Below, in pieces: positions 1-17,340 of a DNA stretch of 20,000 bases. A program made the position numbers and the translations under genes. Position 1 is the stretch's first letter. Every line of letters begins with the position of its first letter. Source of the DNA: an uncultured virus (IMG/VR IMGVR_UViG_3300045006_000529) (Duplodnaviria > Heunggongvirae > Uroviricota > Caudoviricetes); the IMG/VR virus record IMGVR_UViG_3300045006_000529. One strand, given 5' to 3'. Below the pieces are notes generated by a model, which was not told the origin of the DNA, did no database searches, and saw only the letters and a list, made by a program, of their open reading frames with translations.

Positions 1-2776
1 TATCAACGTTGGCAAAAACATGGGTCAGGTTGGGAACATGTCCGGCGTAGAAAACGTCCCGTTTGCCCGTGAACTCCTTAACCACCCCCTTGGCGTCGTA
101 TCCAAACAGGTAGAGCTTCACGTCCGGGTCTGCACTTTTTACTCTACCCCATACCTCGTCAATGAACCACCTGATTCCCATACTGTTGGGGGGGTGTTCC
201 CAGTTAGCCAGGAAGCCAACAACTTTGTCTTCGGGCTTGCACGGCAGGACAGGAGGCCTTGCCTGCCGATGGGGAATGACAAACGCCTTCCTCTGAATGT
301 CGAGGGGAAGCACACCGATATCAGCTGGGCTGACTACAGTGATAGCATCGGCCTGACGATACCAGCCCAGCTCCTCCTGCATTCTCGTTTCCCACCCGGG
401 GGCATTTGACCTCCTCTCGCGTTCGAAGTGCACATCTCCCGTATAGACACACGTCTTTGCGCCGATAGTTCTAGCCGTCTCGAACAGTCTTGGGTATGAC
501 CCCCACCAGCCGGTGATAATGAGGTCCGGCTTGATAGCAAGAATCTCCTCCGTTGGATCCTTGACTATCTTATGGCCCCGGAGGGCAGGAAGAAAGTTCT
601 TGGTTTCTCCGTAGTAGATAGAGGGCCCTGAGGGGAAGAACCAGACATTTGTGTGCAGGGAAAGGTGTTGTAGGAAGTAATACATCCCTGTCGTTCCTGC
701 AGCCTCTCTGTCTGTGAGATTCCAGGGGCAAGTAAAGACTATCTTAGGCTTGTTTTGGTACCCCCACCTTTCGACGCAGAGATTCTGATTAGCCCACGCC
801 CACTCGCTTTGTGAGTTCTTAAAAGTGGCTCCGCATTCATGGCGGAGCCATGTATAGTTTGCTACTCCCTGTTTATATCCCGCAGCCTGGGCTCTGAAAC
901 AAAAGTCGGGGTCCTCATAGTATCCCTTGCCATACCTCTCATCAAAGAAGCCTATATCCTCCGCAACATGTCTCGAAACAAAGAGAGAGGCCCCATTGAT
1001 AAAACCGCCATTTATGATACCATAGTACTCAAGCGACTGGGGTCTGTCGAGCCACTCCCCTCTTTCTAGACAGAGGGGTGATGCAATCGATATCCTATTT
1101 TCGAACATATGATAAAGCGTTTTCTGCAGCCAGTCCGGATCTGGGAGCCTTACATCACTATTAAGTGAGACGTAGATATCAGCACCCTCCCGAAAAGCCG
1201 CTGCCATCATAGCATTCTGAGACTTAAGAAAGCCCTCGTTCGAGGAGTTCGCTATTACCCTGGTCCGGCCTGGTATGCTATTAAGAATCCTGAGATTCTC
1301 ATCCTGGTTGGGAGATCCGTCTTCTGTAAGAAGGAGGCTGAAAGGCCCTTTTGTCTTGACAACCTCTTCGGCGAACTGTTTTGTCAGGTCGGGGTTTCCG
1401 TAGAAAGATGCTCCGATCACTATCTTTGATTTGCTAAGATCAGGCATAGGCTTGACCAAGGATATCTGAGGACTGGTGTCGTAGACAAGAGCGGGAGGCT
1501 CTGGTTTCCAGATGCTATTAGGGTCAGGCCATTCTATAATCCCACTCGGCCCATCGGGGTCGAGGAAGAACTTCTCATATCTATCTGCCCACTGTCTGAT
1601 TTCGTATTTACTGAGTGTCTGCTTTTTCTCCTGGGCTTTAGATAAGAAGAAGCTATAGTTGTCACGTACATCTCTAAGCTTAGTCATCAGGTCATCAAAG
1701 TCAGGGTCCCACTGCTCACCGCAGGGGGTCTTGGAGACATAGGGATACCAAGCAGGAGACGTCTCTTTTATCTTGAGGCCTATGCCCCCCTCCTCATCAA
1801 TAATGACTTGATGAGCGTGCCCACTGCTGATTATACAGAGCTTTCCTGTTGCAAGAGCCTCGCGGGGCATGAAGGAGAATCCCTCACCGGAGGAAGGAAG
1901 GAGTAGGCAGTCAATCTTGTTGAGAAACGTCCTTACTTCGCTCTCTGACATGCTCTCTGCGGAGAAGAAAACTCGGCTGTCTTTGCCAGCCTCCTTCTTT
2001 ATTTCTCTCGTCCTCTCTGGACTGTCTCCCCACCGGCTCTTGATAATCAGCCTGACATCCGGCTCGTCCGGAAAGGCCCGTTTGAATGCCCTGATAGTGG
2101 GAAGGATATTTTTACGGGGTGTATCATGAGCCACCATTCCGAAGATGAAAGGGGTAGACGGCCTTTTAGCATACAACTCTGCATCCCTGAAAAGGAAATT
2201 TATCTGCGGCATTACTAGCGGAACATGTAGGATGGGGATCTTTACCCCGCTGTCTCTATACGCCTTAACCAGGTAAGAAGATGGTACAAAAACGTGGGTC
2301 CAATACTTGTTCAGGGCAGCAGCCCAGTCTGCGGGGATCCTTGAACTTTCCAACATAGATATGGCGATCCGACGTTTGGCCCCCAGCGTTTTTGGCATGT
2401 ACTGTGCCAAACTGTAGGGATCAGGCTTGCCGTTGCTGCGGGGTAGAGTCGCAATAACACCTGTTGTAATTAGGGTGTCGCCGACAGACCCTTTTGACAG
2501 CTCGGACATGGGATAAAGCGGAAGCGGAGCATGTAGGGGATAGTAATAGGGCATCTCACTTGTGCTGTCTATGTCCTCAAAAACGTTGAAGATTTTGATA
2601 TCGTACCTATCTTGCAAACACATGTATAGATTGTAGGCTATCTTGCCCAGTCCGTCTGCAGCTAATACTGGGCCAAGAATGCTTATCTTTGGCTTTGGTG
2701 TCGCCCTGTTCGACCCAGGCATAGCAAGATCTTTCTTCTGTCTGTTTCTGCTCGGCCTACCCTGTTTTATCATCAT
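1..2776 (-). CDS. Multidomain glycosyltransferase GT4-GT2-GT4 (at least 925 aa, runs off the left edge; absent from the ORF track)
   Basis: Translated by hand from ATG at 2776 (ATGA overlap with the GT9 stop) with no stop down to position 2: MMIKQGRPSRNRQKK...ISILGPVLAADGLGKIA. First GT4 domain: ISMLESSRIPADW, HVFVPSSY, FGMVAHDTPRKN, and DCLLLPSSGEGFSFMPREALATG (EX7E motif, near 1885). GT2 domain (~1430-770): LLTEDGSPN, NSSNEGFLKSQN, VSLNSD, NGASLFVSR, IGFFDERYGKGYYEDPDFCFRA. Second GT4 domain (~755-1): ADAITVVSPAD, VGFLANWEHPPNSMGIRWFIDEVW, YAGHVPNL. Confidence 0.9.
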   Translation of the reverse strand, partial: MMIKQGRPSRNRQKKDLAMPGSNRATPKPKISILGPVLAADGLGKIAYNLYMCLQDRYDIKIFNVFEDIDSTSEMPYYYPLHAPLPLYPMSELSKGSVGDTLITTGVIATLPRSNGKPDPYSLAQYMPKTLGAKRRIAISMLESSRIPADWAAALNKYWTHVFVPSSYLVKAYRDSGVKIPILHVPLVMPQINFLFRDAELYAKRPSTPFIFGMVAHDTPRKNILPTIRAFKRAFPDEPDVRLIIKSRWGDSPERTREIKKEAGKDSRVFFSAESMSESEVRTFLNKIDCLLLPSSGEGFSFMPREALATGKLCIISSGHAHQVIIDEEGGIGLKIKETSPAWYPYVSKTPCGEQWDPDFDDLMTKLRDVRDNYSFFLSKAQEKKQTLSKYEIRQWADRYEKFFLDPDGPSGIIEWPDPNSIWKPEPPALVYDTSPQISLVKPMPDLSKSKIVIGASFYGNPDLTKQFAEEVVKTKGPFSLLLTEDGSPNQDENLRILNSIPGRTRVIANSSNEGFLKSQNAMMAAAFREGADIYVSLNSDVRLPDPDWLQKTLYHMFENRISIASPLCLERGEWLDRPQSLEYYGIINGGFINGASLFVSRHVAEDIGFFDERYGKGYYEDPDFCFRAQAAGYKQGVANYTWLRHECGATFKNSQSEWAWANQNLCVERWGYQNKPKIVFTCPWNLTDREAAGTTGMYYFLQHLSLHTNVWFFPSGPSIYYGETKNFLPALRGHKIVKDPTEEILAIKPDLIITGWWGSYPRLFETARTIGAKTCVYTGDVHFERERRSNAPGWETRMQEELGWYRQADAITVVSPADIGVLPLDIQRKAFVIPHRQARPPVLPCKPEDKVVGFLANWEHPPNSMGIRWFIDEVWGRVKSADPDVKLYLFGYDAKGVVKEFTGKRDVFYAGHVPNLTHVFANVD

Positions 2777-4257
2777 GATAATTTCCCACCTGTACCAATG
2801 ATACTACTGCTCGCCCTCAAGTGTGCTCCATCAATCTTAGGGGCAAGGCTCTGCTGTCCAGCCGCCTCCAAGTTGAAACTGGCTAGCTCCCGGTTCAGCC
2901 ATCCTGTCTTCATTCTGAGGTTAGGTTTGACAGAGCATGTAAGATCCCCCTTAGGCTGCCAGTCGTTAGGGCTCAAGACGTTGTAGGCCTCTAAAACCTT
3001 TCCCCAGACGTCTTCCTGTGGAGCTGGGAGAGAAGAAAGTATATCAAGGGACTTGATATCAACATTTTTCACTGTGCTAGGCAACCCCTTCAACATATTG
3101 AACAGCTGAATATTCCACTCTTGAGCTTCTATGGCCAGACCTACTTCTCCCCTCCATAGTATCCCCTTGTCGAGGGGACACGCCAGTCTTTCCTCCACTG
3201 CATTAGCTATCTCCTTCCCTGAGATGCTGGTAATACAAACCCTGTTTGCACATCCGGAATTCGAGTACCAGCAAGGCGCCCTTGAACACTTTTCCGGATG
3301 CCACAGGTTGGTGACATTTCTGTAGTACGAGGTTCTGGATCCTGGGTGTGTTCCCCCCCAGAGGCCGACGAGTTTTTTATTCAGTGCCCCTGCCATGTGC
3401 AGGGGCCCTGTATCTGGGGACACTATCAGCTCACTCACACCCACCAGTCCGAAAAATTCCTTGACAGACAGGCCCCTCCATTCGAGAACACCGGGAATTC
3501 CCCACGGATCACGATAGGCCTCTGAAACAACTCCGACGTAAATGTCGTTTCTTCTCTTCAAGAGAGACACTGCTGTTTGTAGCGACTGTAGAGAAGGGTC
3601 TCTAAAGCCAGTATTGCTGTTCTGGAAAAATAGAATAAGAGGCCTGTTAAACTGTCCCACCTGTCTCTGGATCAGCTCCCTTCCGGTCGCCAGCGTGTCT
3701 TCAGGAAGATGAAGATAGGGCCTCTTGATGGAAGGATCAACGCCTAGGTAATGGGAGAAGATGTCTATCCTTTCGCGGGGCTTGGTAGTGGGCCTTTCCT
3801 CCTGAATTTCGCCAGCCTGACCTGAGATGTCAACGAAGAAGTCAAAGCGACCGGGATTATAGGTCTCATAATTCGCATCCAGCACAACATCCACCCAGGG
3901 GAGATGTTTAACTGCTTCATAGATCACGCCGTGTTTAGATCCCGGGGCAATATCGGTCGTATAATGAGACTGCACAATCAAGGTTACATGAGCAGAGGGG
4001 AACTTCTCCCTGAGTCCCAGTAGGGATGGGGTTATCATCAAGATATCCCCTAATCCAGGCTTGAGCCTGGCTATAGCTATCTTGTAGGCTGCCTGCGAAC
4101 TGCCAACTCTGGCAAGATGGCTTACACGGAACCTGCTTGTATTATGTCTGCCAGTATTCTTGGTAATAGCAGGCCGCCCGCCCCTTCTTACAGAAAGGGG
4201 CCTGCGGCTCCTTGGCAAAAGACGAGGAAGCCCTCCTTTGCCCCGATGCAGGATCAT
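2773..4257 (-). CDS. GT9 family glycosyltransferase (ADP-heptose:LPS heptosyltransferase-like, WaaC/WaaF fold) with N- and C-terminal extensions
   Basis: Motifs GLGDILMITPSLLGLREKFPSAHVTLIV, LPWVD and LIVSPDTGPLHMAGALNKKLVGLWGGT, plus the Cys cluster CSRAPCW...GC...VCITSI. SD-like GAGGGA at 4261-4266. Confidence 0.9.
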   Translation of the reverse strand: MILHRGKGGLPRLLPRSRRPLSVRRGGRPAITKNTGRHNTSRFRVSHLARVGSSQAAYKIAIARLKPGLGDILMITPSLLGLREKFPSAHVTLIVQSHYTTDIAPGSKHGVIYEAVKHLPWVDVVLDANYETYNPGRFDFFVDISGQAGEIQEERPTTKPRERIDIFSHYLGVDPSIKRPYLHLPEDTLATGRELIQRQVGQFNRPLILFFQNSNTGFRDPSLQSLQTAVSLLKRRNDIYVGVVSEAYRDPWGIPGVLEWRGLSVKEFFGLVGVSELIVSPDTGPLHMAGALNKKLVGLWGGTHPGSRTSYYRNVTNLWHPEKCSRAPCWYSNSGCANRVCITSISGKEIANAVEERLACPLDKGILWRGEVGLAIEAQEWNIQLFNMLKGLPSTVKNVDIKSLDILSSLPAPQEDVWGKVLEAYNVLSPNDWQPKGDLTCSVKPNLRMKTGWLNRELASFNLEAAGQQSLAPKIDGAHLRASSSIIGTGGKLS

Positions 4258-4266
4258 GGTTCCCTC

Positions 4267-5367
4267 TTAGGCTACAGGTTCCTTAGCCCTAGCCTTTTTC
4301 TCGGCTACTAGAGCCCTGTAGAGGGCTCCACGAGCTACCGAAAAGAGGGCATCTTCTGACTGGCGAATCTGGCCAACCTCAATCTGGGGCGCCGCACTAT
4401 TCCATGTTTGAACAAACATGTCCAGGAAGCCAGGAGCTAATGAGGTACCCCCAGCCACTACAACGTCAACAGGTTCAGGAAAAACAACGCCCTGAAACTG
4501 GACTTTCATGTTCTCAATCACGTTTTTGATGAGTCGGCGATAGGCAAGAGCGATTCCTGCAACCACTTGGTCTTCCGACTCAAGGTTGTCAAGGAGATTG
4601 GTAAGTTGACGCTCTTTCACCTTCTGCACCCTTGCCGAGGTCATTCCGGCAAACTGGGAGGCTACCTTGGCATCCACATAATCACCTGACCCTATGATAG
4701 AGAAGGACTTTACAATGGTGCCCAACACCATGGCGCAGATGTTAATCTGGCCTGCTCCCAGACTACAAGTGATTCCTGTCAGGTTCTTGTTTCTCAACTG
4801 ATCGTAAGCAATACAGGCACCCTCGTTGACTGGAATTGGAGAAAACCCAAGGCTTCTCAATAAAGAATCCATCTTATCAAGATGGAATTCTGTATTGAAG
4901 AACCCTGTTGCTTGTTTATTTAGAGGCTCGGCTGGAACAGTGTATACACACGTTTCCCCGCTATAGGAGGCTTTGCCTAGGACGTTTTCAATCAGGACCC
5001 GCATGACAAAGGCTGCTTCCGCATCTGTAGTAGAAAGAACGCCAGCGCTCATGGGTCTCCGTACCTCAATACCCATTGCGTTGGCTATAGAAAGGGCTCC
5101 ATCGCCAACCGTATAGAGATAGCCCGATTGTCTAATGTAGGAAACACCCGCCCTCTCTAGGATAGAGGCAGTGTCCTCCTCGTCATCCAGCTTGAGAAAG
5201 GCGTTGCGTATTTTCTCAATATGGGCACCCCCCTCCTGTGTGGCTATGGCTTGCGCCCCCACAATAAAGGAGGTGCCAATGTCTAGCCCCCTCCCAGCAG
5301 CCAAACCTTCCGTAGTTGAACCTTCCACAGGTATAGTCTCCTTAGGCTTCTTTTTGGGTGTAGCCAT
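4267..5367 (-). CDS. Actin-fold (ASKHA) ATPase, volactin-like / MreB-FtsA-MamK superfamily
   Basis: All actin-ATPase motifs occur in order: phosphate-1 GLDIGTS, YTVGDGAL...RRPMSAGVL, YTVPAEP, connect-1 PIPVNEGACIAY, phosphate-2 GITCSLGAGQIN, GSGDYVD, adenosine VVVAGGTSLAPGF, connect-2 DALFSVARGAL. The superfamily is secure; the volactin subfamily is from recalled similarity. Confidence 0.88.
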   Translation of the reverse strand: MATPKKKPKETIPVEGSTTEGLAAGRGLDIGTSFIVGAQAIATQEGGAHIEKIRNAFLKLDDEEDTASILERAGVSYIRQSGYLYTVGDGALSIANAMGIEVRRPMSAGVLSTTDAEAAFVMRVLIENVLGKASYSGETCVYTVPAEPLNKQATGFFNTEFHLDKMDSLLRSLGFSPIPVNEGACIAYDQLRNKNLTGITCSLGAGQINICAMVLGTIVKSFSIIGSGDYVDAKVASQFAGMTSARVQKVKERQLTNLLDNLESEDQVVAGIALAYRRLIKNVIENMKVQFQGVVFPEPVDVVVAGGTSLAPGFLDMFVQTWNSAAPQIEVGQIRQSEDALFSVARGALYRALVAEKKARAKEPVA

Positions 5368-5720
5368 TACTCTGACGGCCCCTCATTGGTTACATTTGCT
5401 TCTGATAGTATAGAGCCTATCCTTGTTTCGATCAAGACAAACTCTTCGGTATCGCTCAGGTTATCTAGCCAGTAGGAGACCCTTTTGGGTACTGTAAAAC
5501 TGGCCCCACGAGACAGTAGTTTGACTTCGCTCGCTTTGCCAACAGATAAGATTATGCGCCCCATACCTTGTACGACAGCCAATATCGTATCGACTGTTTG
5601 ATACCTTTCCGAGCAGGAGCTCTCCTTTGGTTTTATCCCTACCTTGTAGACAGAAAACTGTCCGCCACTATTACTCTCGGCCAACACTATCTCACGGGTT
5701 TTGCAGGATATATTCTCCAC
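5367..5720 (-). CDS. Small cupin-fold protein (resembles the type II mannose-6-phosphate isomerase C-terminal cupin), lacking metal-binding histidines
   Basis: FSVYKVGIKPKESS...ILAVVQGMGRI...LLSRGASFTVPKRVSYWLDNLSDTEEFVLIETRIG follows the spacing of cupin motifs 1 and 2. GTG start with SD AGGAG at 5726-5730. Confidence 0.7.
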   Translation of the reverse strand: MENISCKTREIVLAESNSGGQFSVYKVGIKPKESSCSERYQTVDTILAVVQGMGRIILSVGKASEVKLLSRGASFTVPKRVSYWLDNLSDTEEFVLIETRIGSILSEANVTNEGPSE

Positions 5721-6110
5721 CTACTCTCCTTCAGAAGAAAGCAGCTTTGCTAGTTCTTCCGTAGCACCAGCATCAATTGTCGTCTCTGACGATGACGGAA
5801 CGACTTTTGCATCCGTTGTTGTGGCAAGACTGCTGTCTCCATCCTCCACCATCTTGACAAACTGCTTGGCAGAGCGACTGGATACAACGTCTGGGCTTAC
5901 GGGCCTGTTTTCCATCCTGGAGAGGATTCTGTCAGCCACCAGGTCTGCTAGAACCTCTACATCAAGAGGAGGAGTCTCGGGCTTGGGAGGAAGAGGTTGG
6001 GAACGTGTCTCTAAACTATCCCTCCGGCTCCAGCGACGTACCCTAGAAAAAGCCTTGCCTGCTCGCAGATACATCTTATCCCAGAAGCGTAATAGACCCT
6101 TGAGACACAT
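5721..6110 (-). CDS. Hypothetical small protein (basic amphipathic N-terminus, Pro-rich linker, short helices); alternative start ATG at 6074
   Basis: Fills the gap between the 407-aa gene (stop at 6076) and the cupin start (5720). Segments: RAGKAFSRVRRWSRR / PLPPKPETPP / LDVEVLADLVADRILSRM / C-terminal EELAKLLS. Confidence 0.7.
   Translation of the reverse strand: MCLKGLLRFWDKMYLRAGKAFSRVRRWSRRDSLETRSQPLPPKPETPPLDVEVLADLVADRILSRMENRPVSPDVVSSRSAKQFVKMVEDGDSSLATTTDAKVVPSSSETTIDAGATEELAKLLSSEGE
5726..5730 (-). promoter_or_regulatory. Shine-Dalgarno site (AGGAG) for the cupin gene
   Basis: Minus strand reads AGGAGAGTAG-GTG, with 5 nt between AGGAG and the start at 5720. Confidence 0.6.
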
Positions 6111-7299
6111 CGTCTACCACATAATCCATTTGGGTCGATACCACCTCTTCTGGATTGCCTCCAGCAGCCACGGCTGTAGCTACAGCTGTAGCTGCCAAAA
6201 AGGCAGTATAACCCTCGAATGTCGCTTGTGGTTCCAGCCCCACCATTTCCGCAAAGGCAGCGTAAGTCATGGAAAAGATGTCGCTTCCGATGCGACACCG
6301 GTAGTTGGCGTAATTAACTATGTTGTTATAAAAGACGCCTATGTCGTCTCGGGAGAGAGCCTGCAGATATATCGTAGGATAGCGTGTAGGCCAGCCTGTT
6401 GCCAAACTCTCATAAGTGCTTTTCTCCTCGGCAGATGGCTCGGAGTCAAAGAAAATCAGGATGTCATGGTCTTCGTAGTCGTCTAGGCCTGTAGGTGTAC
6501 CCAGAGAAAGGGCAGCCGTAGCAGCCGGAGGCTTTACGGTCCACTCTCCATCGCTTGAAGGCAGCACCCTAACAAAGTTGGCTGGCACCATCAGGCCGTT
6601 GGCCTGTAGGGGACAGAAGATCCCATTGCCATGATTTACTATCCCGTTCGGCTGATCGGCGGGGAACCTCACCACAGCTATCCCTGGATAACTCTCCGGC
6701 CAAATAATCTCACTGGCTACTACTGTATGGTTATAAACGGGGACGAAACCAGCTATTTGATCCCCCCAGTAGTTGGGCCAGAAGAAGGGAATTTGCCCGA
6801 ATAGAGCTGTTGTTCCCTCTAAATCCTCGACTTGGTCTTCCAGAGCTTGTAGTTCCGCCTTAGTGGCATATCCAGTAAGACCTGTTCCACTAACCTCGGA
6901 TAAACGGTTGTCCAATTGTGAAACCGACAGAGCAAACTTGGCATTTATGGCCGCCAGGGCTTCCTTGATGGAGGTTGGCCGCTTCAGCGTAGGATCGAAT
7001 AGAAAATCGTTGTTGGCATCTGAAGCTTTCGAGGTAAGATCTGTATAGATCTGGCTGCCGTCAAGCCCATTGGTAAAAGGATTGACAGCATCAACCCTTT
7101 CCTCGCGAAGGACGGTTTCCCCACCACTAGGCAAGGTATTAAGCAATGGAACTACTTTATCATTCCACTCCTGGGAGAGCGCCCTTAGATCAGCCACTAC
7201 TTCCTGGATGAAATCCAGAATGTCTTGTGAAGTAGAGGGCCCCCGATAGGCTATAGGCTTCGAGGAAACAGATGGATAAAATAAGTTTACTTTGCTCAT
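6076..7299 (-). CDS. Putative virion structural / tail fibre-associated protein (407 aa)
   Basis: N-terminal YRGPSTSQDILDFIQEVVADLRAL shares its motif with the three upstream paralogs. A coiled-coil neck with LTGYATKAELQALEDQVEDLEG resembles fibre proteins. ATGA overlap with the upstream gene. Confidence 0.6.
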   Translation of the reverse strand: MSKVNLFYPSVSSKPIAYRGPSTSQDILDFIQEVVADLRALSQEWNDKVVPLLNTLPSGGETVLREERVDAVNPFTNGLDGSQIYTDLTSKASDANNDFLFDPTLKRPTSIKEALAAINAKFALSVSQLDNRLSEVSGTGLTGYATKAELQALEDQVEDLEGTTALFGQIPFFWPNYWGDQIAGFVPVYNHTVVASEIIWPESYPGIAVVRFPADQPNGIVNHGNGIFCPLQANGLMVPANFVRVLPSSDGEWTVKPPAATAALSLGTPTGLDDYEDHDILIFFDSEPSAEEKSTYESLATGWPTRYPTIYLQALSRDDIGVFYNNIVNYANYRCRIGSDIFSMTYAAFAEMVGLEPQATFEGYTAFLAATAVATAVAAGGNPEEVVSTQMDYVVDDVSQGSITLLG

Positions 7300-9527
7300 A
7301 CCAAGACCCCCAACTTTAGGCGAAAGCCATTTAGCTGTGGCGTTCCGCCATTTCTGCTCTTGAGAACGGCCTTCAACACAACGGAGTTGGCTGTGAACCT
7401 GTCGGTATCATAGGTTTCGAGGAAAACCAAGAACAACTCTCTCTCTCTTGGATTATCGGTAGTAAGAGAAAGCAACACGTCGTCGGCCGCCTTTACTAAA
7501 ACCATGCTCAGTTCGTCTGTATTATACAGACATCCACCAGCTAGAGCAAACTTGGTTAGATCACCCGTGTCAGTGTTTCTCTCGAAGTCAAAGAAGGATA
7601 CCCCCTTCATCTTATAGGCCGCGAAGAGACTTCCCCCAATATATACAGGAGTGTCCTCAAAATCCTGTGAATATTCAAGACCTTCGAAGAGCAAACGATG
7701 ATTATAAGGATAAAGCGGGTCGATGAAGACAGACTCTTCGCTGTCTGTGAATCTATACTGCCCGTCTACTAACTCAACAGCAACAATCTGGTTGATAGCT
7801 ACCGACAGCTCGCCAGTATCTTCTAAAGGAACCAGGCGAGAAAAATTCGTTGGCGATACTGCAACTGTATGATCCCCAGCTCCCAAAACCGCGACTCCCG
7901 ACCGGGAAAATCCGTCAATAATGGCCTCCTCTGGCCCAAGATTCACTGTCAGGCTACTTCCCTTTTCTACTCTCACAACAGTATTGTATCTCTGGCCGTC
8001 ATAGAACCACCCTCTTGGGATACTCTTGCCCTCGTAGGAGTAGCAAAAGGCATATTGGCCAGCTACTGTTGGAACATAGGGGGGAGAGGCAGGAGTGTCG
8101 CCCCCCGATCCCTCGAAGACGTTTCTTTTTCCAACATTGCGGAATACAGTAACTTTGTTAGAGACACCTTCCGCAACATCAAGGGCTGAAAGAGGGTCTG
8201 ATCCTTGTTCTTTTACTACGGGAACATTCTCGGCAGATCCTTTTCCAGGATATTGGAAGTAAGACAGCTCGTCCTGATTTGGAACCAGAAAGTCCTCGTA
8301 TGCTGAGTCTACAGTCGATGCTACAGAGATTGATGTAGGATGGTGTATCTCGGCAGCAGAAAGCGGACTGATTGGAAAGAAGCTTTCTCCATCAAAAGAA
8401 ACAGAATATTCGATTGTATTGTCATCGTCGCATGTTTCACAAACATCGAGTGAAACCGTTTTGATTGGCAATACTTCTCCATCATCATCGTATATACTGA
8501 GAGGCAATGAGAAGAACTCATTGCCGTTCTCTTCGCTATAGACCGGCCCTCCAAGTTCAATTATGTCGGCTCCAACATAATAGACGTAGGTCTCTCCCAT
8601 AACCTCATCGGCAAAATCCTTTGATAAGATGATCTTGAGATATTGGAGCGTTGTAGGAGGGAAGTTGACCTCTGTATTGCTCAAAAGGACCAAGCTTTGA
8701 TTGGTGGTCGGGAGAAAAGAATAAGAAACTCCATCGAGGGAGTACAATAAAGAGGCGCTTGTCACCCCTTTTTCTCCGGCAAAGCTCTTTTTGTACACTA
8801 TCCGAGAGATCTCTACCGGCTCTTTCAGGTTGATTATCAATTCCCCTTGTAGCATACCATTATTGGTCATTAGCACCTTTTGAAGCCAGGGGCTATTCTC
8901 GTCTACCAGAATATAGGCTAGGGAGCCACTGATTAACGTTGAAGAAATTAACCTCTCCCTATTGGCCACACGGAACTTGACATCCGCATCCGGCCTGGGC
9001 AGGTAGCGGTTGAGCCCCCCTGTATTCGACGTAGTTTCAGAGATGGTCACAGACTGAGTGTTGCTATTGACCCTCGCAGTTGTCTTGGTCATATCTACGT
9101 TGTCTAGAGAGGTCAGTACATCTTCTACTACATGAAAATATCCATCGGAAAGAGAGGTCAAGGAAAGCAAGGCCAGAATACGCCCTTCATCCTTTTTCAA
9201 CCTGGCCAATAGGAGCCTCAAAGCTGTTAGGGTTCCCTGATAGGCGGCATCCAAATCGTCCGCGCTAGAATAGGTCGCTTCATATGCCGTCTGAACGTCG
9301 AGGCGCAGGTCAGAGAATGTAGTATTATGCTTTTCCGCACTCCCCGCTTCGAGCAGAGAAGTTTGATATTCTGGCTTGCCCACGAAAGCACTGTCTAGGT
9401 TGTTGGCGACATCAACGGTTTTGAGATAGTCCAACGCCTCTCTCAGTGAAGGCACTGTCTGATCTAGAAAGTGCTCACGCAGAAAACTTTCCATCAAGAG
9501 CCGCCGTTTGGCCTCAGCAGTATACAT
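7296..9527 (-). CDS. Putative baseplate/tail structural protein, paralog C (743 aa), with a discoidin/galactose-binding-like domain
   Basis: N-terminal SAEKHNTTFSDLRLDVQTAY followed by a coiled coil. Jelly-roll pattern ELIINLKEPVEISRIVY...YSLDGVSY...FPPTTLQYLKIIL. C-terminal TPQLNGFRLKL. Confidence 0.6.
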   Translation of the reverse strand: MYTAEAKRRLLMESFLREHFLDQTVPSLREALDYLKTVDVANNLDSAFVGKPEYQTSLLEAGSAEKHNTTFSDLRLDVQTAYEATYSSADDLDAAYQGTLTALRLLLARLKKDEGRILALLSLTSLSDGYFHVVEDVLTSLDNVDMTKTTARVNSNTQSVTISETTSNTGGLNRYLPRPDADVKFRVANRERLISSTLISGSLAYILVDENSPWLQKVLMTNNGMLQGELIINLKEPVEISRIVYKKSFAGEKGVTSASLLYSLDGVSYSFLPTTNQSLVLLSNTEVNFPPTTLQYLKIILSKDFADEVMGETYVYYVGADIIELGGPVYSEENGNEFFSLPLSIYDDDGEVLPIKTVSLDVCETCDDDNTIEYSVSFDGESFFPISPLSAAEIHHPTSISVASTVDSAYEDFLVPNQDELSYFQYPGKGSAENVPVVKEQGSDPLSALDVAEGVSNKVTVFRNVGKRNVFEGSGGDTPASPPYVPTVAGQYAFCYSYEGKSIPRGWFYDGQRYNTVVRVEKGSSLTVNLGPEEAIIDGFSRSGVAVLGAGDHTVAVSPTNFSRLVPLEDTGELSVAINQIVAVELVDGQYRFTDSEESVFIDPLYPYNHRLLFEGLEYSQDFEDTPVYIGGSLFAAYKMKGVSFFDFERNTDTGDLTKFALAGGCLYNTDELSMVLVKAADDVLLSLTTDNPRERELFLVFLETYDTDRFTANSVVLKAVLKSRNGGTPQLNGFRLKLGVLV

Positions 9528-12427
9528 TAGACTGCAAGTCCTTCCTCTGAAACTGCAATTAATCGATATTCCTGTAGCACAGGAGAGTAATAAGGTTCCA
9601 ATTCCTTCAGCGCATTGCGAAAGTCTACAGCATAGCGATAGATAGCCCTGATACCCCTCTTGTTATCCGCCGTTTTCACGGCAGTAGAAAGTTCAAGGGC
9701 ATAGGCATCTGAAAGCCTCACCTCTTTCTCTCCCTCTAAAGACCAGTGGGTATCCTCTCGTAGAGGAAGCCCTATACTATATTCAGCAAAGTAGTTGGTA
9801 AACTGAAACTGAATTTGGTAATACGCACTTCCGCTAGTCTTAAAAGGTGTCTCGGGTGAATAAAGCTTTCCCTGGGCGTAGTCTACCGAAAATGTAAATG
9901 TCTTCGTATCCAGTACTTCAAACTCGGCCTGTCCGTCTATAAAAGGCACTTCCGTCCAGTCTGACACCGGCAGCCCGTCCTGGTCCGAGAAGACTATGGA
10001 CTTTGGAATGATAGCCTTAACCACTATGTCGGTAGTGGTTACTGCATTAATCCACCAGACCAAGCTCCCATTTTCCAGTGTGTCGGCAGCAAGAACCCCC
10101 GTTTCCACTCCTAAGACAGACGGGTCTATCTCTATTTCTTGGACAGAACTAGAGGCAAAATTCCACTTGTCTTCCGGAATATATGTTCTACGATGAAACT
10201 GATAATCAATGTAAGTTGACCTAGTTAGTAAAGGAAATGCATCCAGGTTGGTGGGATCTTCTTCATTATAGGCTACACAGATAAGCCCCAGACGCTTGTC
10301 AATTGAGTAACATCCATCTTCTACGGCATACCCGATGCCAGCCTCTTCTTCTGAACGAGCATAGCCGTAAAACTCTTGCACGCCGTCGATGTATTCCAGA
10401 TATTTGCGGAAGGGCCCCTCATCAACGGGAAGCTCTTCGACAGTACCGTCTTCTTTTAGGTAATACAGGTGGAAGTAGTCAGGATCCGGCTCCTCACCTT
10501 CAGCAGGGTCCGGAAAGTACAGAAAGGTATGACTTAACTGGATTCTGGAGAGACCCTTCCGCAAAACCTCTTGTTGTACAAGCTCCTTGGGGCCTTCTCG
10601 ATAGATATTTACCTTGCTCTTAATACCAGTAGAAGGAAAACGTAGTTTTGTAGCAATAGGATTACCAGGCTCAAGCAACAGCCTCTCTCTATCGAACCAC
10701 AGATATACAGGCTGGCCTGGCTTCGGCTGGGAAGTGATCGATCCGTCCCCAAAATTCAGGGTTCTTGCCTTCTGATCGATCATGAAACATTCTTTTCCAA
10801 TACTTCCCTCATAGGCTAAGGTACGCGCCCTCGACCACTCAGTTAGCCCTACCTTAACCCGAATGGTCAGATCATCCAGATTATCAAATGGTAGCCCCAT
10901 TACAATCTGTTCTTCTTCTAAGGTGGGAACCAGTCCCACAAAGTACGGAGTTGTTGGCTCCTCTGCACACTCTCCCCCCAGGGGATTGATTAACTGCAAG
11001 CTTCCAGAAACAGGAACGTTCTTTAGGGAAAATAGATAGGGCGGGTTCTCTGGAAATGACAGCATCTCGCTAAAATCTTCCTCTTGGGCCCCCAACCCTG
11101 CGTTGGCGAACCCCTCCGTCAAGCGAGACATTCCGCACCTATACTTGATAACATTAGAGCCACTTTCCCCAGCGGATACTAGATCCTCAGTATTCACTAT
11201 CTCCTGAAGATCGCTGCGGGAAAACTGCATGGGGGCCAGGTCGTTCCACGACTGGCCTGTGTCCAAGGAGAAAGAGTGGGTTACTGCTCCTATAGTGCTT
11301 CCCTCTCCTGGGGTTTGGTTCGTAGCTATGGCTACCTTCATAATTGCCGAGGAAGAAACGAAGTCCTTCGAGATAAACTCTCCACTGTCTTTAAAGGAGA
11401 GCCCCCTAACCTGAACCTCTTTCAGGCCTATAGCCCATCTCTCCTTAGTGGCATTGACAGTATCGATAATATAGGAAGAGGGCTGTTCGATAATCATCCG
11501 AATGTATTTGGCTTTACGCGGCGTAAAGAAAAAAGAACTGGTTCCGCTTAGCTTGGTTCCCGGCCCCAAAACAAAGAGGTCTTCCTCTGTCTCTGTTCCC
11601 CAATCTACCAGCGGCAGGTCTTGGTCTACAGAGATAAAATCTTTTCCATCCTCTGAAGTATCCAGAATTCGCAGGGTGGGCCAGGTTTTAGTCCCAAAGT
11701 TGACCGATACTATGCGGATGTTGTTAACCACCTCGGCCTTGCCTAATACCAAGGTTAGAGATAGAACTAAAGGAGGTGTGAATTCTCCCACTCTCTCATA
11801 TTCATACCAGGTATCCGGATTCCCGTCGAATAGGTCACGAATATTATTGTGGCGGGGTACACCATACTCGTTATTATTCCCAGCCACACCGTTGCTTTCT
11901 ACATTGATAACAACTTGTTTGATCTCTCTTACATTCTCTTGTTCCAGCGGCAAGGTTGTAATTCCAGCCTCGGCATCAAAAGAGCACATGTCTTTGGTCA
12001 ACAAGCCCTTGTTTGGATCGACCTTAGCCAGGTCATTGAATGTATCGCCAAAGTAGAAGAAACCCTTCTGGGGACGGAGACTATAAATGCGATAGTCTGC
12101 CAAGAGAGATTTGACTCTCGCCACCTTGGCCTGGATCTCTTGAACAAGAGCCTGGACCTCGTTGAAGTTATCAACGACGAACCCTCCAAGCGTGCCCGCC
12201 TGGCTGTACAGCAAGTTGAGGTCTATCTCCAGTTGGCTTAAGGCCATTTTGTAGGCAAACAGATCAGGAATTTGACCGGCTTTGGCCTCCTGATTAAGCA
12301 TAAGAGGTGTAAACAGCCCTCCGCCATGCCGAGCTAGCAGATCTCCAAACTGAAGCCCACGGTCTTGCAAAGCCCTTGAGGCTGCTTTGAGAAGCTGAAT
12401 ACGTCCTGGCAGAGAGGTGTTGCTCAT
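9527..12427 (-). CDS. Putative baseplate wedge-like structural protein, paralog B (966 aa), with an F5/8 type C (discoidin)-like domain
   Basis: NIRDLFDGNPDTWYEY...LTLVLGKAEVVNNIRI...TSEDGKDF...FTPRKAKYIRMII...GLKEVQV is a discoidin signature. FMIDQKARTLNFGDG...PKPG resembles the baseplate-protein FGDG motif. C-terminal SPVLQEYRLIAV. Confidence 0.65.
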   Translation of the reverse strand: MSNTSLPGRIQLLKAASRALQDRGLQFGDLLARHGGGLFTPLMLNQEAKAGQIPDLFAYKMALSQLEIDLNLLYSQAGTLGGFVVDNFNEVQALVQEIQAKVARVKSLLADYRIYSLRPQKGFFYFGDTFNDLAKVDPNKGLLTKDMCSFDAEAGITTLPLEQENVREIKQVVINVESNGVAGNNNEYGVPRHNNIRDLFDGNPDTWYEYERVGEFTPPLVLSLTLVLGKAEVVNNIRIVSVNFGTKTWPTLRILDTSEDGKDFISVDQDLPLVDWGTETEEDLFVLGPGTKLSGTSSFFFTPRKAKYIRMIIEQPSSYIIDTVNATKERWAIGLKEVQVRGLSFKDSGEFISKDFVSSSAIMKVAIATNQTPGEGSTIGAVTHSFSLDTGQSWNDLAPMQFSRSDLQEIVNTEDLVSAGESGSNVIKYRCGMSRLTEGFANAGLGAQEEDFSEMLSFPENPPYLFSLKNVPVSGSLQLINPLGGECAEEPTTPYFVGLVPTLEEEQIVMGLPFDNLDDLTIRVKVGLTEWSRARTLAYEGSIGKECFMIDQKARTLNFGDGSITSQPKPGQPVYLWFDRERLLLEPGNPIATKLRFPSTGIKSKVNIYREGPKELVQQEVLRKGLSRIQLSHTFLYFPDPAEGEEPDPDYFHLYYLKEDGTVEELPVDEGPFRKYLEYIDGVQEFYGYARSEEEAGIGYAVEDGCYSIDKRLGLICVAYNEEDPTNLDAFPLLTRSTYIDYQFHRRTYIPEDKWNFASSSVQEIEIDPSVLGVETGVLAADTLENGSLVWWINAVTTTDIVVKAIIPKSIVFSDQDGLPVSDWTEVPFIDGQAEFEVLDTKTFTFSVDYAQGKLYSPETPFKTSGSAYYQIQFQFTNYFAEYSIGLPLREDTHWSLEGEKEVRLSDAYALELSTAVKTADNKRGIRAIYRYAVDFRNALKELEPYYSPVLQEYRLIAVSEEGLAV

Positions 12428-12428
12428 A

Positions 12429-14480
12429 TTAAGCTGATCCCGCCATTAATTTGTAGCTCTCGATGAGAGCCGTTTGAGAAAGATTGGGTGTTGTCTGTCT
12501 GATAATGAGAATCAGATAGATGTCTGACGTTGCTACCTGAAGATCAATGCCGTCTGGATCAAATTCGACCGTCCCCTCCTGGGTAAACCAGATGGTCTGT
12601 GCCGCATCCAGGAAGAATTTTTTTCTATCTCCGGTTATAGTATCATACGTATATGTGCCAGACCCTAGTGTGGAGTAACGATCAAAGTAGAAAGCTGGAG
12701 TGTAAGAGGCAGTATAGATATCTGCCAAACCGACGATGCGCCCGGCCAACACAGCCCCATTAATACGGAGAGTTGTATGACCTGTAGTCTCATAGGAAAA
12801 CACAGACCATTCCCCGGCTTCCAGGGCTACACCATTACAGTAAATAGTAATATCATTATTATATGTTTCGGGATCGCTGAACAAGAGTGCTGGCAGCTGT
12901 AACTTTGCCAACCCATATTGGTCTGGCAAGATCCTCTCATGTACCACCGAGGTAGTATTAATTGGGAGGATAGGAATGGACCACCTGTTGATAGTCTCAC
13001 CAGCTTCATTATAGTCTTTCTTGAAGATATAGGTCTCTACATTTGAAGCTCGGTCTAGTCCACCCACTAAGGCGGGGGGAAGCATCTGTGAAATGCTAAG
13101 GGCAACCCGTCCTGGCCTGGCCACCTCCAAAGGCTTGCTGACGTAAATCCCCGTTTCTTGGTAATTGCGGAAGCCGACCTCTAGGCTCTTCAGTCCAAAG
13201 GGGTAAATGAAGAGATCTACCGGTTGGTCTGGCATCGTAGGTAAAACTGAGGTTGGCTGATAAATGTTAACCCTGGTCTCTTCCTGGGGCATAACCGGGA
13301 AGACGTGCATAATATCACCAGGGAGCTCGGCAACTCTGAAAGACGCGGTGCCAGTTCCCCCTGGTTTGCTGTACCCGGTCTGACCTGTGAGAATCCCCTC
13401 GGTGGCCAGAACGTTATTCCCCGCCAGAACATGTCCTGCCCCCCCCGAAGGGAAAGCGTATTGGGCATTGACATGTGTGGATTGTATTTGATAAGTCGTT
13501 TGGGAAAATACTATTATCAGTTTGGCCGCATGGGCGTCTGGCATTCCTATATCGACAGGTCCATAGAGAGGCGTATCCAACATAGAACTGTCTACTGGAG
13601 TCCAGAGAGCCAGATTGCCAGCCAGATCGCCATAGTAGATGGAGCTAATCTTGATAGGCGTATCTAAGATAGCTGGGAACAATCTCAGATAGTTAAGCTT
13701 TGGCATACCACCCAGGACAACTTCGAGAGCGTAGACTACTTCACTGCTTGGGAGGAAGTAGAAACCAATATTGGTTAGCCATGGCTTGCCTGTCAGAAGC
13801 TGAGCTGGAGAACTCCGGCTGTCTACAAAGCTGCCAGACGTGGACATCTCCTCGTTGAGACCAAGGTCTAGGATCTTGGCGACATAGCTCTCACTTGGGT
13901 TTGGAGGCAGGGTGAGAACTCCCGTATCTACCAAAATCTGACAGTCGTTCTCCGAGTTCAAAAACGTGTTGGTCTTACGGTCTAGGAAGAGGTTGTCCAC
14001 ATCCTCTTCGTCCCTTAGGCGGCGGTCTCCCGGAGATTTGAATTCGTTATACTGGATATAGTCGTAATCTTCACTGATCCCGGCCAACAATTCATAAGTC
14101 CCGATACTATTCTCAAGTAGATCAGTCTGGGCCTCCAAAGTAGCCAGGGTATCTCCATGGAGCAGCCGAAGATGCCTTTTGGCAGCCTCGAAGATGAGAT
14201 CCAGCTCTCGATAGACAGCCTCCAGGTCCATTTTTGCCGCCCATAGATGAAAGTTGTGGCTCTCAGAAGATACCTTGTCTTCATAGTCGGTTTTTATCTG
14301 GCGGAATAGGGGTACGCCAAATTTTCCCTGTAGCCCCTCCATCATCTGGCGATAGAGACGATTAAACTCGTCTCTTGTTCCAATCTCGCCTTTGGTAGCC
14401 CTCTGGCTTAAGTAGGATTCGACAATCCTTGCCTGGTACTTAGGAAGTGCCCCAGTCCATGCGTCAAGAAAGCGATTCAT
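12429..14480 (-). CDS. Putative baseplate/tail structural protein, paralog A (683 aa)
   Basis: Motifs SSESHNFHLWAAKMDLEAVY, VDTGVLTLP, YALEVVLGGMPKLNYLRLFP and FGLKSLEVGFRNYQETGIYVSKPL, and C-terminal TALIESYKLMAG, are colinear with the 966- and 743-aa proteins. Confidence 0.6.
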   Translation of the reverse strand: MNRFLDAWTGALPKYQARIVESYLSQRATKGEIGTRDEFNRLYRQMMEGLQGKFGVPLFRQIKTDYEDKVSSESHNFHLWAAKMDLEAVYRELDLIFEAAKRHLRLLHGDTLATLEAQTDLLENSIGTYELLAGISEDYDYIQYNEFKSPGDRRLRDEEDVDNLFLDRKTNTFLNSENDCQILVDTGVLTLPPNPSESYVAKILDLGLNEEMSTSGSFVDSRSSPAQLLTGKPWLTNIGFYFLPSSEVVYALEVVLGGMPKLNYLRLFPAILDTPIKISSIYYGDLAGNLALWTPVDSSMLDTPLYGPVDIGMPDAHAAKLIIVFSQTTYQIQSTHVNAQYAFPSGGAGHVLAGNNVLATEGILTGQTGYSKPGGTGTASFRVAELPGDIMHVFPVMPQEETRVNIYQPTSVLPTMPDQPVDLFIYPFGLKSLEVGFRNYQETGIYVSKPLEVARPGRVALSISQMLPPALVGGLDRASNVETYIFKKDYNEAGETINRWSIPILPINTTSVVHERILPDQYGLAKLQLPALLFSDPETYNNDITIYCNGVALEAGEWSVFSYETTGHTTLRINGAVLAGRIVGLADIYTASYTPAFYFDRYSTLGSGTYTYDTITGDRKKFFLDAAQTIWFTQEGTVEFDPDGIDLQVATSDIYLILIIRQTTPNLSQTALIESYKLMAGSA

Positions 14481-14918
14481 CTACTGTACCTTTCTATACA
14501 CCAGAGACAAAGTAGGGGCGAGCCTATGGGCTCGCTTCAGGGCAGGGGCTTGTAGGAAGACGCTTAGGGTAACAGTATCGCCCGGTTCTAACTCTAGCCT
14601 GTTTCCCTCCTCGTCGAGCAAGTATATCGGCGTCAGGACGCTATCTCCCTGGCCCACCTTGATGACTACCTTTTCATCATAATTTGGCAAAGAGAGTTTC
14701 AAGCCACAGCCAGGATAGTTGTGGGCCCAGTACAAAAGCGTGTCCTTGTCGTCCCCCTCTAGATAGAGGCCTATGTCGGTGACCCCAAAGAAGTAGTGGT
14801 GCCGGAGGGTTATAATCAGCAACTCAGTCTCAAAAGCTGGATCAACAACGATTCCTAAATCATAGGCATCATCCAGAACCAACCCGCCAGCAGTTTGCCA
14901 TGTAAAAATGTCATCCAC
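14481..14918 (-). CDS. Hypothetical protein (145 aa), probably a small beta-sandwich virion protein
   Basis: GTG start overlaps the upstream TAG, and its stop abuts the next ATG. Beta-strand-rich, with an Ig-like LEPGDTVTLSVFLQAP pattern. Confidence 0.65.
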   Translation of the reverse strand: MDDIFTWQTAGGLVLDDAYDLGIVVDPAFETELLIITLRHHYFFGVTDIGLYLEGDDKDTLLYWAHNYPGCGLKLSLPNYDEKVVIKVGQGDSVLTPIYLLDEEGNRLELEPGDTVTLSVFLQAPALKRAHRLAPTLSLVYRKVQ

Positions 14919-17332: not shown

Positions 17333-17340
17333 ACCTGTCC

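Follow-up and report, generated by a model that had tools for sequence, protein, structure and literature searches.

The cytoskeletal proteins described in phages so far are mainly PhuZ, a tubulin of jumbo phages, and one prophage actin, AlpC of the Corynebacterium prophage CGP3; both are phage-encoded nucleoside triphosphatases that organise infection, and AlpC serves viral DNA replication (PMC4446434). Volactin of Haloferax volcanii (PF25216), the archaeal shape factor for which its family was named only in 2023-24, is encoded on the chromosome and forms dynamic filaments in vivo (PMC10869688). Here, we analysed a 20,000-nt stretch of the virus record IMGVR_UViG_3300045006_000529 (the window, to which all coordinates without a locus name refer), in which five genes at positions 1-6110 on the minus strand encode a predicted small protein, a probable cupin-fold protein, an actin, a GT9-family glycosyltransferase (GT) and a triple GT. 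The window actin resembles volactin in its full-length family match and its actin fold, but it is phage-borne and lies in a tail operon. AlpC and PhuZ are not volactin-family proteins in a structural operon; PhuZ is a tubulin, and AlpC is set apart by its description. Volactin-family actins are common in viral contigs, where they occur in operons of virion genes. No description of this family in phages was found in the open-access literature searched, and the founding Haloferax paper contains none of the words phage, virus or viral.

Virus-encoded enzymes that build virion glycans have precedents in mycobacteriophages and in a chlorovirus. Mycobacteriophage GTs put glycans on capsid and tail-tube subunits (Freeman et al. 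2023, as summarised in PMC12619734), and moraphages have four core GT orthogroups (PMC12619734). The A064R protein of chlorovirus PBCV-1 is a soluble three-domain transferase (two GT domains and a methyltransferase) that builds the capsid protein glycan, and giant viruses also encode nucleotide-sugar enzymes (PMC9614988). The same logic is seen in the GT4-GT2-GT4 fusion of the window, together with the methyltransferases and the GDP-mannose dehydratase of its relatives. However, A064R belongs to a eukaryotic virus and to different GT families, we claim no homology, and the window fusion has three GT domains and no methyltransferase. Compared with the mycobacteriophage systems, as we understand them at the gene level, the set of enzymes described here is led by a GT9, is far larger and more variable, and is known from genes alone. 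Serotype-converting Gtr systems likewise consist of phage genes that change surface glycans; they depend on membrane proteins, whereas none of 141 cassette proteins has a strongly hydrophobic segment (19-residue Kyte-Doolittle mean of at least 2.0).

All window proteins were compared by tblastn with 162 actin-anchored loci, in which genes were called, neighbours clustered, and cluster representatives annotated with Pfam. The order structural block, small genes, actin, GT9 and further GTs was found in eight distinct viral and metagenomic contigs with actin identities of 33-47%, and the actin is directly upstream of GT9 in the window, L083, L085, L069/L163, L013/L178, L166, L198 and L210. In L083, the structural block is followed by two small genes, the actin, a GT9-GT2 fusion and a GT4-GT4 fusion; in L069 (a 195-kb contig), the actin is followed by a GT9-GT9 fusion, two methyltransferases, a pyruvyl transferase and a methyltransferase; and in L013 by a GT9, three GT4s, a methyltransferase and a GT2. 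L085 is short, and the actin and GT9 are all that is visible of the arrangement. With the 743-aa structural protein of the window as anchor, the structural block was found in 50 IMG/VR loci on contigs of 18-229 kb, and profile searches located a GT9 within 10 kb downstream in 27 of these loci (on the same strand in 25) and an actin in seven. Their common plan is a structural block, a length-variable gene, an optional set made of a gene of about 130 aa, a small variable gene and the actin, then GT9, variable enzymes and a coiled-coil gene of about 72 aa, which is often followed by a strand switch. GT9 comes directly after the variable fibre-like gene in 16 loci. After removal of seven duplicates, and with at least 6 kb downstream required, 38 loci remained, of which five carry actin and GT9, one carries actin only, 17 carry GT9 only and 15 carry neither (Fisher p = 0.37). 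Among five records rated 100% complete, the volactin gene is present in G001 only; G002, G004 and G005 have GT9, and no volactin gene was found anywhere in these three genomes. In addition, the cassette of L166 recurs in L168, where the actin and the small gene before it are missing, and in L005 a related actin leads directly into the coiled-coil and nuclease genes that come after the L069 cassette, with no GT between them. Because each is found without the other, the actin and the GT cassette look like two separate add-ons and not one machine. Taken together, these results make it highly probable that the site behind the last fibre-like gene is an accessory hot spot that houses two tenants, each separable from the other. 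Clean natural controls for experiments are available in sister phages that have or lack the actin and in those that have or lack the cassette.

A reading made earlier from the sequence alone (the sequence-only reading) had taken the five genes as one unit, in which actin filaments position the GTs to glycosylate virions or to remodel the host envelope. One part of it stood, since actin followed by GT9 beside structural genes does recur in eight contigs; the linkage that it implied is not supported, as GT9 occurs without actin in 17 of the 38 loci and the association is not significant. Nor do the cupin and the 129-aa small protein belong to a recurring unit, since neither is conserved and neither has detectable relatives. 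What keeps the scaffold model under consideration is the constant actin-then-GT9 order. The two genes are also close in the 595-kb phage L002 (a GT9-like gene one small open reading frame (ORF) upstream of the actin), they are separated by 9 nt in the window, and the basic N-terminal extension of GT9 could dock on a partner. However, this extension is also present in phages without the actin, complete genomes carry the cassette without volactin, and between L166 and L168 the actin was gained or lost while the cassette was unchanged. Moreover, the closest relative of the window actin besides that of L083, in L084 (45% identity by tblastn), is surrounded by genes for a DNA methylase, a RecD2 helicase and a ferritin-like protein, and a GT neighbour is lacking for most of the phage actins in the family. 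We thus regard a single actin-scaffolded machine as unlikely. No description of an actin-glycosyltransferase module was found in the open-access literature searched.

All 12 ORFs of at least 60 aa that tile the window are on the minus strand, and the GC content (0.44-0.53) shows no break. In the direction of transcription, they encode proteins of 885 (open at the 5′-end), 804, 145, 683, 966, 743, 407, 129 and 117 aa, followed by the 366-aa actin, the 494-aa GT9 and the triple GT of at least 925 aa. The junction between the 407-aa and 129-aa genes is -35 nt (+1 nt if the in-frame Met13 is the true start), and those that follow are 0 nt (129-aa gene to cupin), -1 nt (cupin to actin), +9 nt (actin to GT9) and -4 nt (GT9 to triple GT); the upstream structural genes are similarly close (-4 to +8 nt). 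The operon packing suggests late expression. Sigma-70-like promoter matches in the whole window are at chance level (24, with 21.1 ± 4.7 expected), which neither shows nor excludes an internal promoter. None of the window proteins reaches a 19-residue Kyte-Doolittle mean of 1.9; the large upstream proteins are strongly acidic, and the window GT9 is basic. The window sequence is present in DNA runs of lake-water metagenomes, and no RNA run containing it was found among the sequencing runs searched.

The same order was found in a complete phage genome. G001 (194,631 bp), which like G002 has direct terminal repeats and is rated complete, carries the structural block, actin and GT9 in this order at 136-158 kb. 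Upstream of the block are a gp6-like baseplate wedge (phrog_6, E = 3.7e-36), more matches to virion structural proteins and a 1845-aa protein with an endolysin-like part (lysin domain); downstream of the cassette come a PD-(D/E)XK nuclease and a primase-helicase. GT9, GT4 and GT2 enzymes are typical of bacterial surface-glycan loci, so that the region might be a cellular polysaccharide locus abutting a prophage. The position of the block inside a terminal-repeat phage genome excludes this for the relatives. For the window, in which all 12 genes are co-directional with overlaps and Pfam and NCBIfam scans found no housekeeping gene, it is very unlikely, the least probable of all the readings considered here. 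The sequence-only reading had also held that the module is viral, that the five genes continue a structural operon at close junctions, that this operon encodes tail or baseplate proteins, and that the products are a cupin without histidine, an actin, a GT9 and a GT4-GT2-GT4 fusion. The G001 genome, its baseplate wedge gene, the computed junctions and the family matches agree with all four statements, the cupin being a probable one and the third GT domain being incomplete at the window edge. The window is best explained as the far end of a baseplate/tail-fibre operon of a large uncultured phage of lake water with a contractile-type tail. In addition to the GT9 of its cassette, G001 has a second, weaker match to the GT9 profile (77.9 bits) in a 639-aa gene within the structural block, upstream of the homologue of the 683-aa protein (L163:2715-4634, the same as L214:6867-8786).

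The GT9 gene (2773..4257, minus strand) encodes 494 aa and matches PF01075 with 40.4 bits (cut-off 22), the match spanning only residues 264-325. A sequence search of the PDB with the single protein gave no match, but a profile built from five relatives recognised both Rossmann halves, with 3TOV (a GT9 of unknown substrate) matched over both halves (E = 2e-10), followed by WaaF (1PSW, E = 1.1e-7) and WaaC (2GT1, E = 1.4e-4). TibC, a protein-heptosylating relative, was absent from this profile-structure search at E ≤ 1. WaaC and WaaF, GT9 heptosyltransferases of lipopolysaccharide (LPS), are thus the best sequence relatives with solved structures. The phage enzymes differ from them. All 22 aligned phage GT9s (the window and 21 others, including those from phages without the actin) have a basic N-terminal extension of 40-60 aa (about 55 aa in the window). 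Close to the C-terminal end of the GT9 core, all 22 also have four cysteines that flank a conserved W-Y in the motif C-x(2-6)-C-W-Y-x(3-5)-C-x(4-5)-C, which may be a metal finger. In addition, the best NCBIfam matches of the window GT9, heptosyltransferases I-III, score 16-29 bits against cut-offs of 135-467; going by these scores, it should not be named a heptosyltransferase. The C-terminal tail of the window GT9 (about 130 aa) has no match. Inteins are present at two different sites in the GT9s of L166 (14719-16680) and L190 (10044-12473), and also in a cassette GT4 (L197:15482-18028). Inteins usually reside in conserved, important genes and are unusual in glycosyltransferases, and their presence here suggests that GT9 and GT4 are conserved core genes of the lineage.

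The triple GT (2..2776, minus strand), which is cut at 925 aa by the window edge, is a fusion of a GT4-like GT-B domain, a GT2 GT-A domain and a second GT4-like GT-B domain by Pfam. It matches Glyco_trans_1_4 in two stretches (58.9 bits, E = 8.8e-16), Glycos_transf_1 (E = 9.1e-12), Glyco_trans_2_3 at residues 538-686 (30.1 bits, E = 5.1e-7) and the glycosyltransferase family phrog_2170 (E = 1.2e-27); the third GT-B-like stretch, at 845-917, scores far below the cut-off of TIGR03087 and is incomplete at the window edge. The fusion shares 35% identity over 399 aa with the neighbour protein in L083. In the relatives, the cassettes contain GT4, GT2 and GT25 enzymes, methyltransferases, a sulfotransferase, a pyruvyl transferase, hexapeptide acyltransferases, a GDP-mannose 4,6-dehydratase, a Polysacc_synt_2 dehydratase, a GFO/IDH/MocA oxidoreductase, a UDP-glucose-dehydrogenase-like protein and a formyltransferase. 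Flippase, polymerase, ABC transporter and phosphoglycosyl-transferase families were not found among the 97 representative proteins scanned, and neither the integral membrane flippase and polymerase of a Wzx-Wzy system nor GtrB/GtrC-type proteins are present among them. In L170, the gene after the actin is not a GT9 but a 715-aa ORF that carries N-terminal domains of class II ribonucleotide reductase (L170:16016-18163), which is followed by two GT4s and a GDP-mannose 4,6-dehydratase.

These features bear on what the cassette glycosylates. Since no membrane, flippase or polymerase component is found and the genes are fused to a putative late structural operon, the acceptor is probably cytoplasmic; the cassette would build a glycan on it, most likely on a virion protein encoded by the same transcript. 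GT9, the conserved enzyme, would initiate this glycan, and the variable enzymes would diversify it. We favour virion glycosylation because the cassette is soluble, because GT9 is conserved in first place while the rest varies, because the genes are packed into the operon, and because inteins lie in its core genes; we rate it as evenly balanced between right and wrong. The main rival is that the target of the cassette is the host envelope, for example the LPS core, whose remodelling would block superinfection or the sticking of progeny to debris, and that the virion stays unglycosylated. The missing membrane proteins are compatible with this, since the LPS core is made on the cytoplasmic face by soluble or peripheral enzymes; the structural and NCBIfam relatives of GT9 point the same way, and the CBM32-like modules of neighbouring structural proteins suggest a glycan receptor. 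On the other hand, late expression, as implied by the operon packing, would leave little time for surface turnover, Gtr-type and Wzx/Wzy-type membrane components are lacking, and GT9 is marked as a core gene, not a moron, by its inteins and its near-universal place at the front. We consider envelope remodelling possible but doubtful. That the GTs hypermodify phage DNA with sugars against restriction deserves very little weight, although DNA-glycosylating GT clusters are known in phages (PMC12619734; see also PMC13326640). The cassette adjoins fibre genes and not replication genes, and its sulfo-, pyruvyl- and methyl-transferases fit polysaccharide decoration. Among the five complete genomes, a gene of the thymidylate synthase family (hydroxymethylase type) is lacking in G001, G002 and G004, which bear GT9, and present in G003, which does not; this distribution and the enzyme set are what make DNA glycosylation so improbable. 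A hypervariable, wholly soluble glycan factory directly behind the tail-fibre genes is a feature of a lineage of large aquatic phages. If it decorates the virion, glycosylation of phage virions would extend well beyond the mycobacteriophages, and glycan diversity would be linked to host-range genes.

The actin gene (4267..5367, minus strand) encodes an actin-like ATPase of 366 aa that matches PF25216 over profile positions 3-321 of 321 (212.5 bits, cut-off 35; E = 1.4e-62). A sequence search of the PDB with it gave no match. Its AlphaFold model, from a 24-row alignment, has a predicted local distance difference test score (pLDDT) of 90.3 and a predicted template modelling score (pTM) of 0.89, and the best Foldseek matches of the model are MreB/Mbl, MamK, the BeeR filament, crenactin and actin (probability 1.00, TM-scores 0.55-0.72), so that the protein is predicted to have the actin fold with four subdomains. 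Across the 24 sequences, D29/G31/T32 are nearly invariant, and S202/G204/G206 and G306/G307/T308 are invariant; presumably these are the phosphate 1, phosphate 2 and adenosine motifs. The fold and the nucleotide-site columns are as in filament-forming actins, and by analogy with Haloferax volactin the phage protein would form filaments, which we think somewhat more probable than the contrary.

Actin-like partition systems are common on plasmids and occur in some phages. The actin might likewise be a ParM-like motor that segregates a plasmid-like episome and lies beside the GTs by accident. The dynamics of volactin have been likened to those of ParM (PMC10869688), but the only repeats in positions 1-7500 are three of 14-16 nt, each in two copies, with no centromere-like array; the gene lies within a structural operon that leaves no space for a promoter of its own, and its small neighbours are unconserved, so that a conserved adaptor gene is missing. 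We hold such a segregation role to be highly improbable.

Relatives of the actin are numerous. All 44 relatives in protein databases carry PF25216, the few named ones coming from Planctomycetota and Parcubacteria assemblies, and relatives are also encoded in two assemblies of 485 and 595 kb that GenBank lists as 'huge phage'. A single-protein pattern search for the actin gave no match in viral contigs, but an alignment-based search did find relatives there: at least 576 of at least 600 matched stretches were confirmed, with a total estimated at about 1100 IMG/VR stretches. In metagenomes, at least 588 of at least 608 matches were confirmed, with an estimated total of about 2100. In a tree of 141 actins, the gene context tracks phylogeny. 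The window actin groups with L083, L085 and L084 (support 100), and a more careful tree of 49 rows unites these four with the L069/L013 clade (15 rows, support 85/81). In a viral clade of 40 rows, 35 have the actin followed by ribosomal protein S21, an unknown 356-aa protein, a Gp23-type major capsid protein and a head-tail adaptor, and no GT cluster is among the recurrent neighbours of this clade. Its members (L006, L022, L043, L055 and about 30 more IMG/VR contigs) carry the actin inside a T4-like head-morphogenesis module. A search for the Gp23 family in the five complete genomes gave no match, as did its control. Two clades of 30 and 3 rows, which include the 485-kb phage, have unknown neighbours in common, among them a protein of about 1500 aa with DUF2460/DUF4815 matches below threshold, and a metagenome clade of 17 rows has no recurrent neighbour. 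In a metagenome clade of 37 rows, 28 lie inside gas-vesicle clusters (GvpL/F, GvpG, GvpO, GvpH, an ArsA-like ATPase and a CDC48-like AAA protein). The clade includes the metagenome contigs L091, L129, L130, L151, L115, L111 and L093. By analogy with MamK and magnetosomes, the actin of this clade may position gas vesicles; no paper linking gas vesicles (GvpF) with an actin-like protein was found in the open-access literature searched.

Since volactin-family actins lie in structural operons of two unrelated phage groups and have cellular kin in gas-vesicle clusters, they may form filaments that organise large protein assemblies late in infection. A wider proposal, that the family is a widespread undescribed phage cytoskeleton for building or placing large assemblies and that the window filament gathers fibre proteins and the soluble glycan enzymes at a single site of assembly, seems to us rather unlikely and is offered tentatively. 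We propose that the accessory hot spot, behind the last length-variable fibre-like gene, can hold two separable insertions. One is the glycan-building cassette, nearly always led by the conserved GT9, the rest being highly variable soluble enzymes, of which the window has a single GT4-GT2-GT4 fusion. The other is the volactin-family actin, which is optional and is preceded by one or two small genes that evolve fast, in the window those of the 129-aa protein and the cupin without histidine. The actin would form ATP-dependent filaments late in infection that act on virion morphogenesis or particle placing and do not serve the GTs. For this explanation as a whole, with its hot spot, virion glycosylation and late filaments, the chances are about equal either way. 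Several points weigh against it. Operon packing is the sole basis for calling the genes late, and the virion glycan is predicted from genes alone, with LPS heptosyltransferases as the nearest characterised GT9s, which fits envelope modification equally. For the large upstream proteins, a structural role is deduced from PHROG labels and from weak likeness to a 'structural protein' of Bacillus jumbo phages. Polymerisation is known for the Haloferax protein only, the phage actin being a predicted filament former, and host MreB could replace the phage actin in genomes that do not carry it. With six actin-bearing dereplicated loci, the Fisher test has low power. When actin and GT9 occur together, the actin is immediately upstream (in six of the seven actin-bearing loci among the 50, and in the window, L083 and L085), and a functional link may exist in phages that carry both.

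The last structural gene (6076..7299, minus strand) encodes a putative tail-fibre-like protein of 407 aa; among relatives the N-terminus is conserved, and the length and C-terminus vary. By tblastn, residues 18-309 align to L083, whereas in L069 and L013 the alignment covers just the N-terminal part of about 110 aa; genes at this position in relatives encode 211-1207 aa. Upstream of it, 7296..12427 (minus strand) encodes two paralogous large putative virion proteins of 743 and 966 aa, which match phrog_19683 (E = 3.4e-12) and phrog_21108 (E = 3.4e-13), labelled 'virion structural protein', and form one BLAST cluster present in 52 loci. Each has a CBM32/F5-8C-like module, with F5_F8_type_C matches below the cut-off (E of about 1e-5) and PDB matches to CBM32 that are weak; these modules hint that the receptor of the phage lineage is a glycan. 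The remaining operon genes (12429..19998, minus strand) encode proteins of 683, 145, 804 and 885 aa, the gene for the 885-aa protein having an open 5′-end. The 683-aa protein matches a PHROG labelled virion structural protein (phrog_20243, E = 1.4e-5). Genes from 49 related loci fall into one cluster with the 683-aa protein, and genes from 44 do so with the 804-aa protein. In the PDB sequence search, the 966-aa protein had no match and the 804-aa protein had chance-level matches only. The isolate-phage collection gave weak matches only, of the 743-aa protein to two Bacillus jumbo phages, and no cultured member of the lineage was found there.

The small genes that separate the actin from the structural block cannot be aligned from one locus to another. 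The 129-aa predicted protein (5721..6110, minus strand; its start may be Met13 at 6074) has no match in Pfam, PHROG or NCBIfam and no relative among the fetched loci, its best non-self phmmer matches having E = 0.012-0.2. A hidden Markov model of the family of about 130 aa ('c12') that follows the fibre gene in relatives matched neither it nor the cupin at E ≤ 10. The 117-aa protein (5367..5720, minus strand) has a GTG start and overlaps the actin start by 1 nt. Three cupin-clan Pfam matches fall on the same region of it, each short of its curated cut-off: Cupin_1 (21.0 bits, cut-off 22), MannoseP_isomer (19.9, cut-off 23.6) and Cupin_2 (16.1, cut-off 27.2). A single-sequence AlphaFold model was poor (pLDDT 41), but in the ESM Atlas the protein has a feature score of 0.96, its ten best family-bearing matches all belong to one clan, and its model there (pTM 0.69) has TM-scores of 0.81-0.85 to Cupin_2 clusters and phosphomannose-isomerase-type cupins; by the terms of the tool, such results are leads. 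Cupins carry metal-binding histidines in two cupin motifs; the 117-aa protein has no histidine at all. The Atlas results support the view that it is a cupin-fold orphan without the usual metal ligands. Among 5.8 billion clusters, its only relative was itself, and 1.84 billion representatives held no credible one; two multi-stretch matches with E of about 1e-4, in proteins of 1665 and 440 aa, were taken as spurious. The small gene before the actin in L166 was considered as a cupin and is unrecognisable as one (best Atlas score 0.82, no family). In L025 (11025-11396) and L037 (11077-11439), on contigs of 197-296 kb, a ManC-type cupin (PF01050, E = 2.4e-20) comes directly after the actin, and the genes upstream of the actin are for nucleotide metabolism and not structural. 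BLASTP gave no alignment between the window cupin and the ManC-type cupin of L025. A cupin adjoining the actin was seen twice, in the window and in L025/L037, with the two genes in opposite order.

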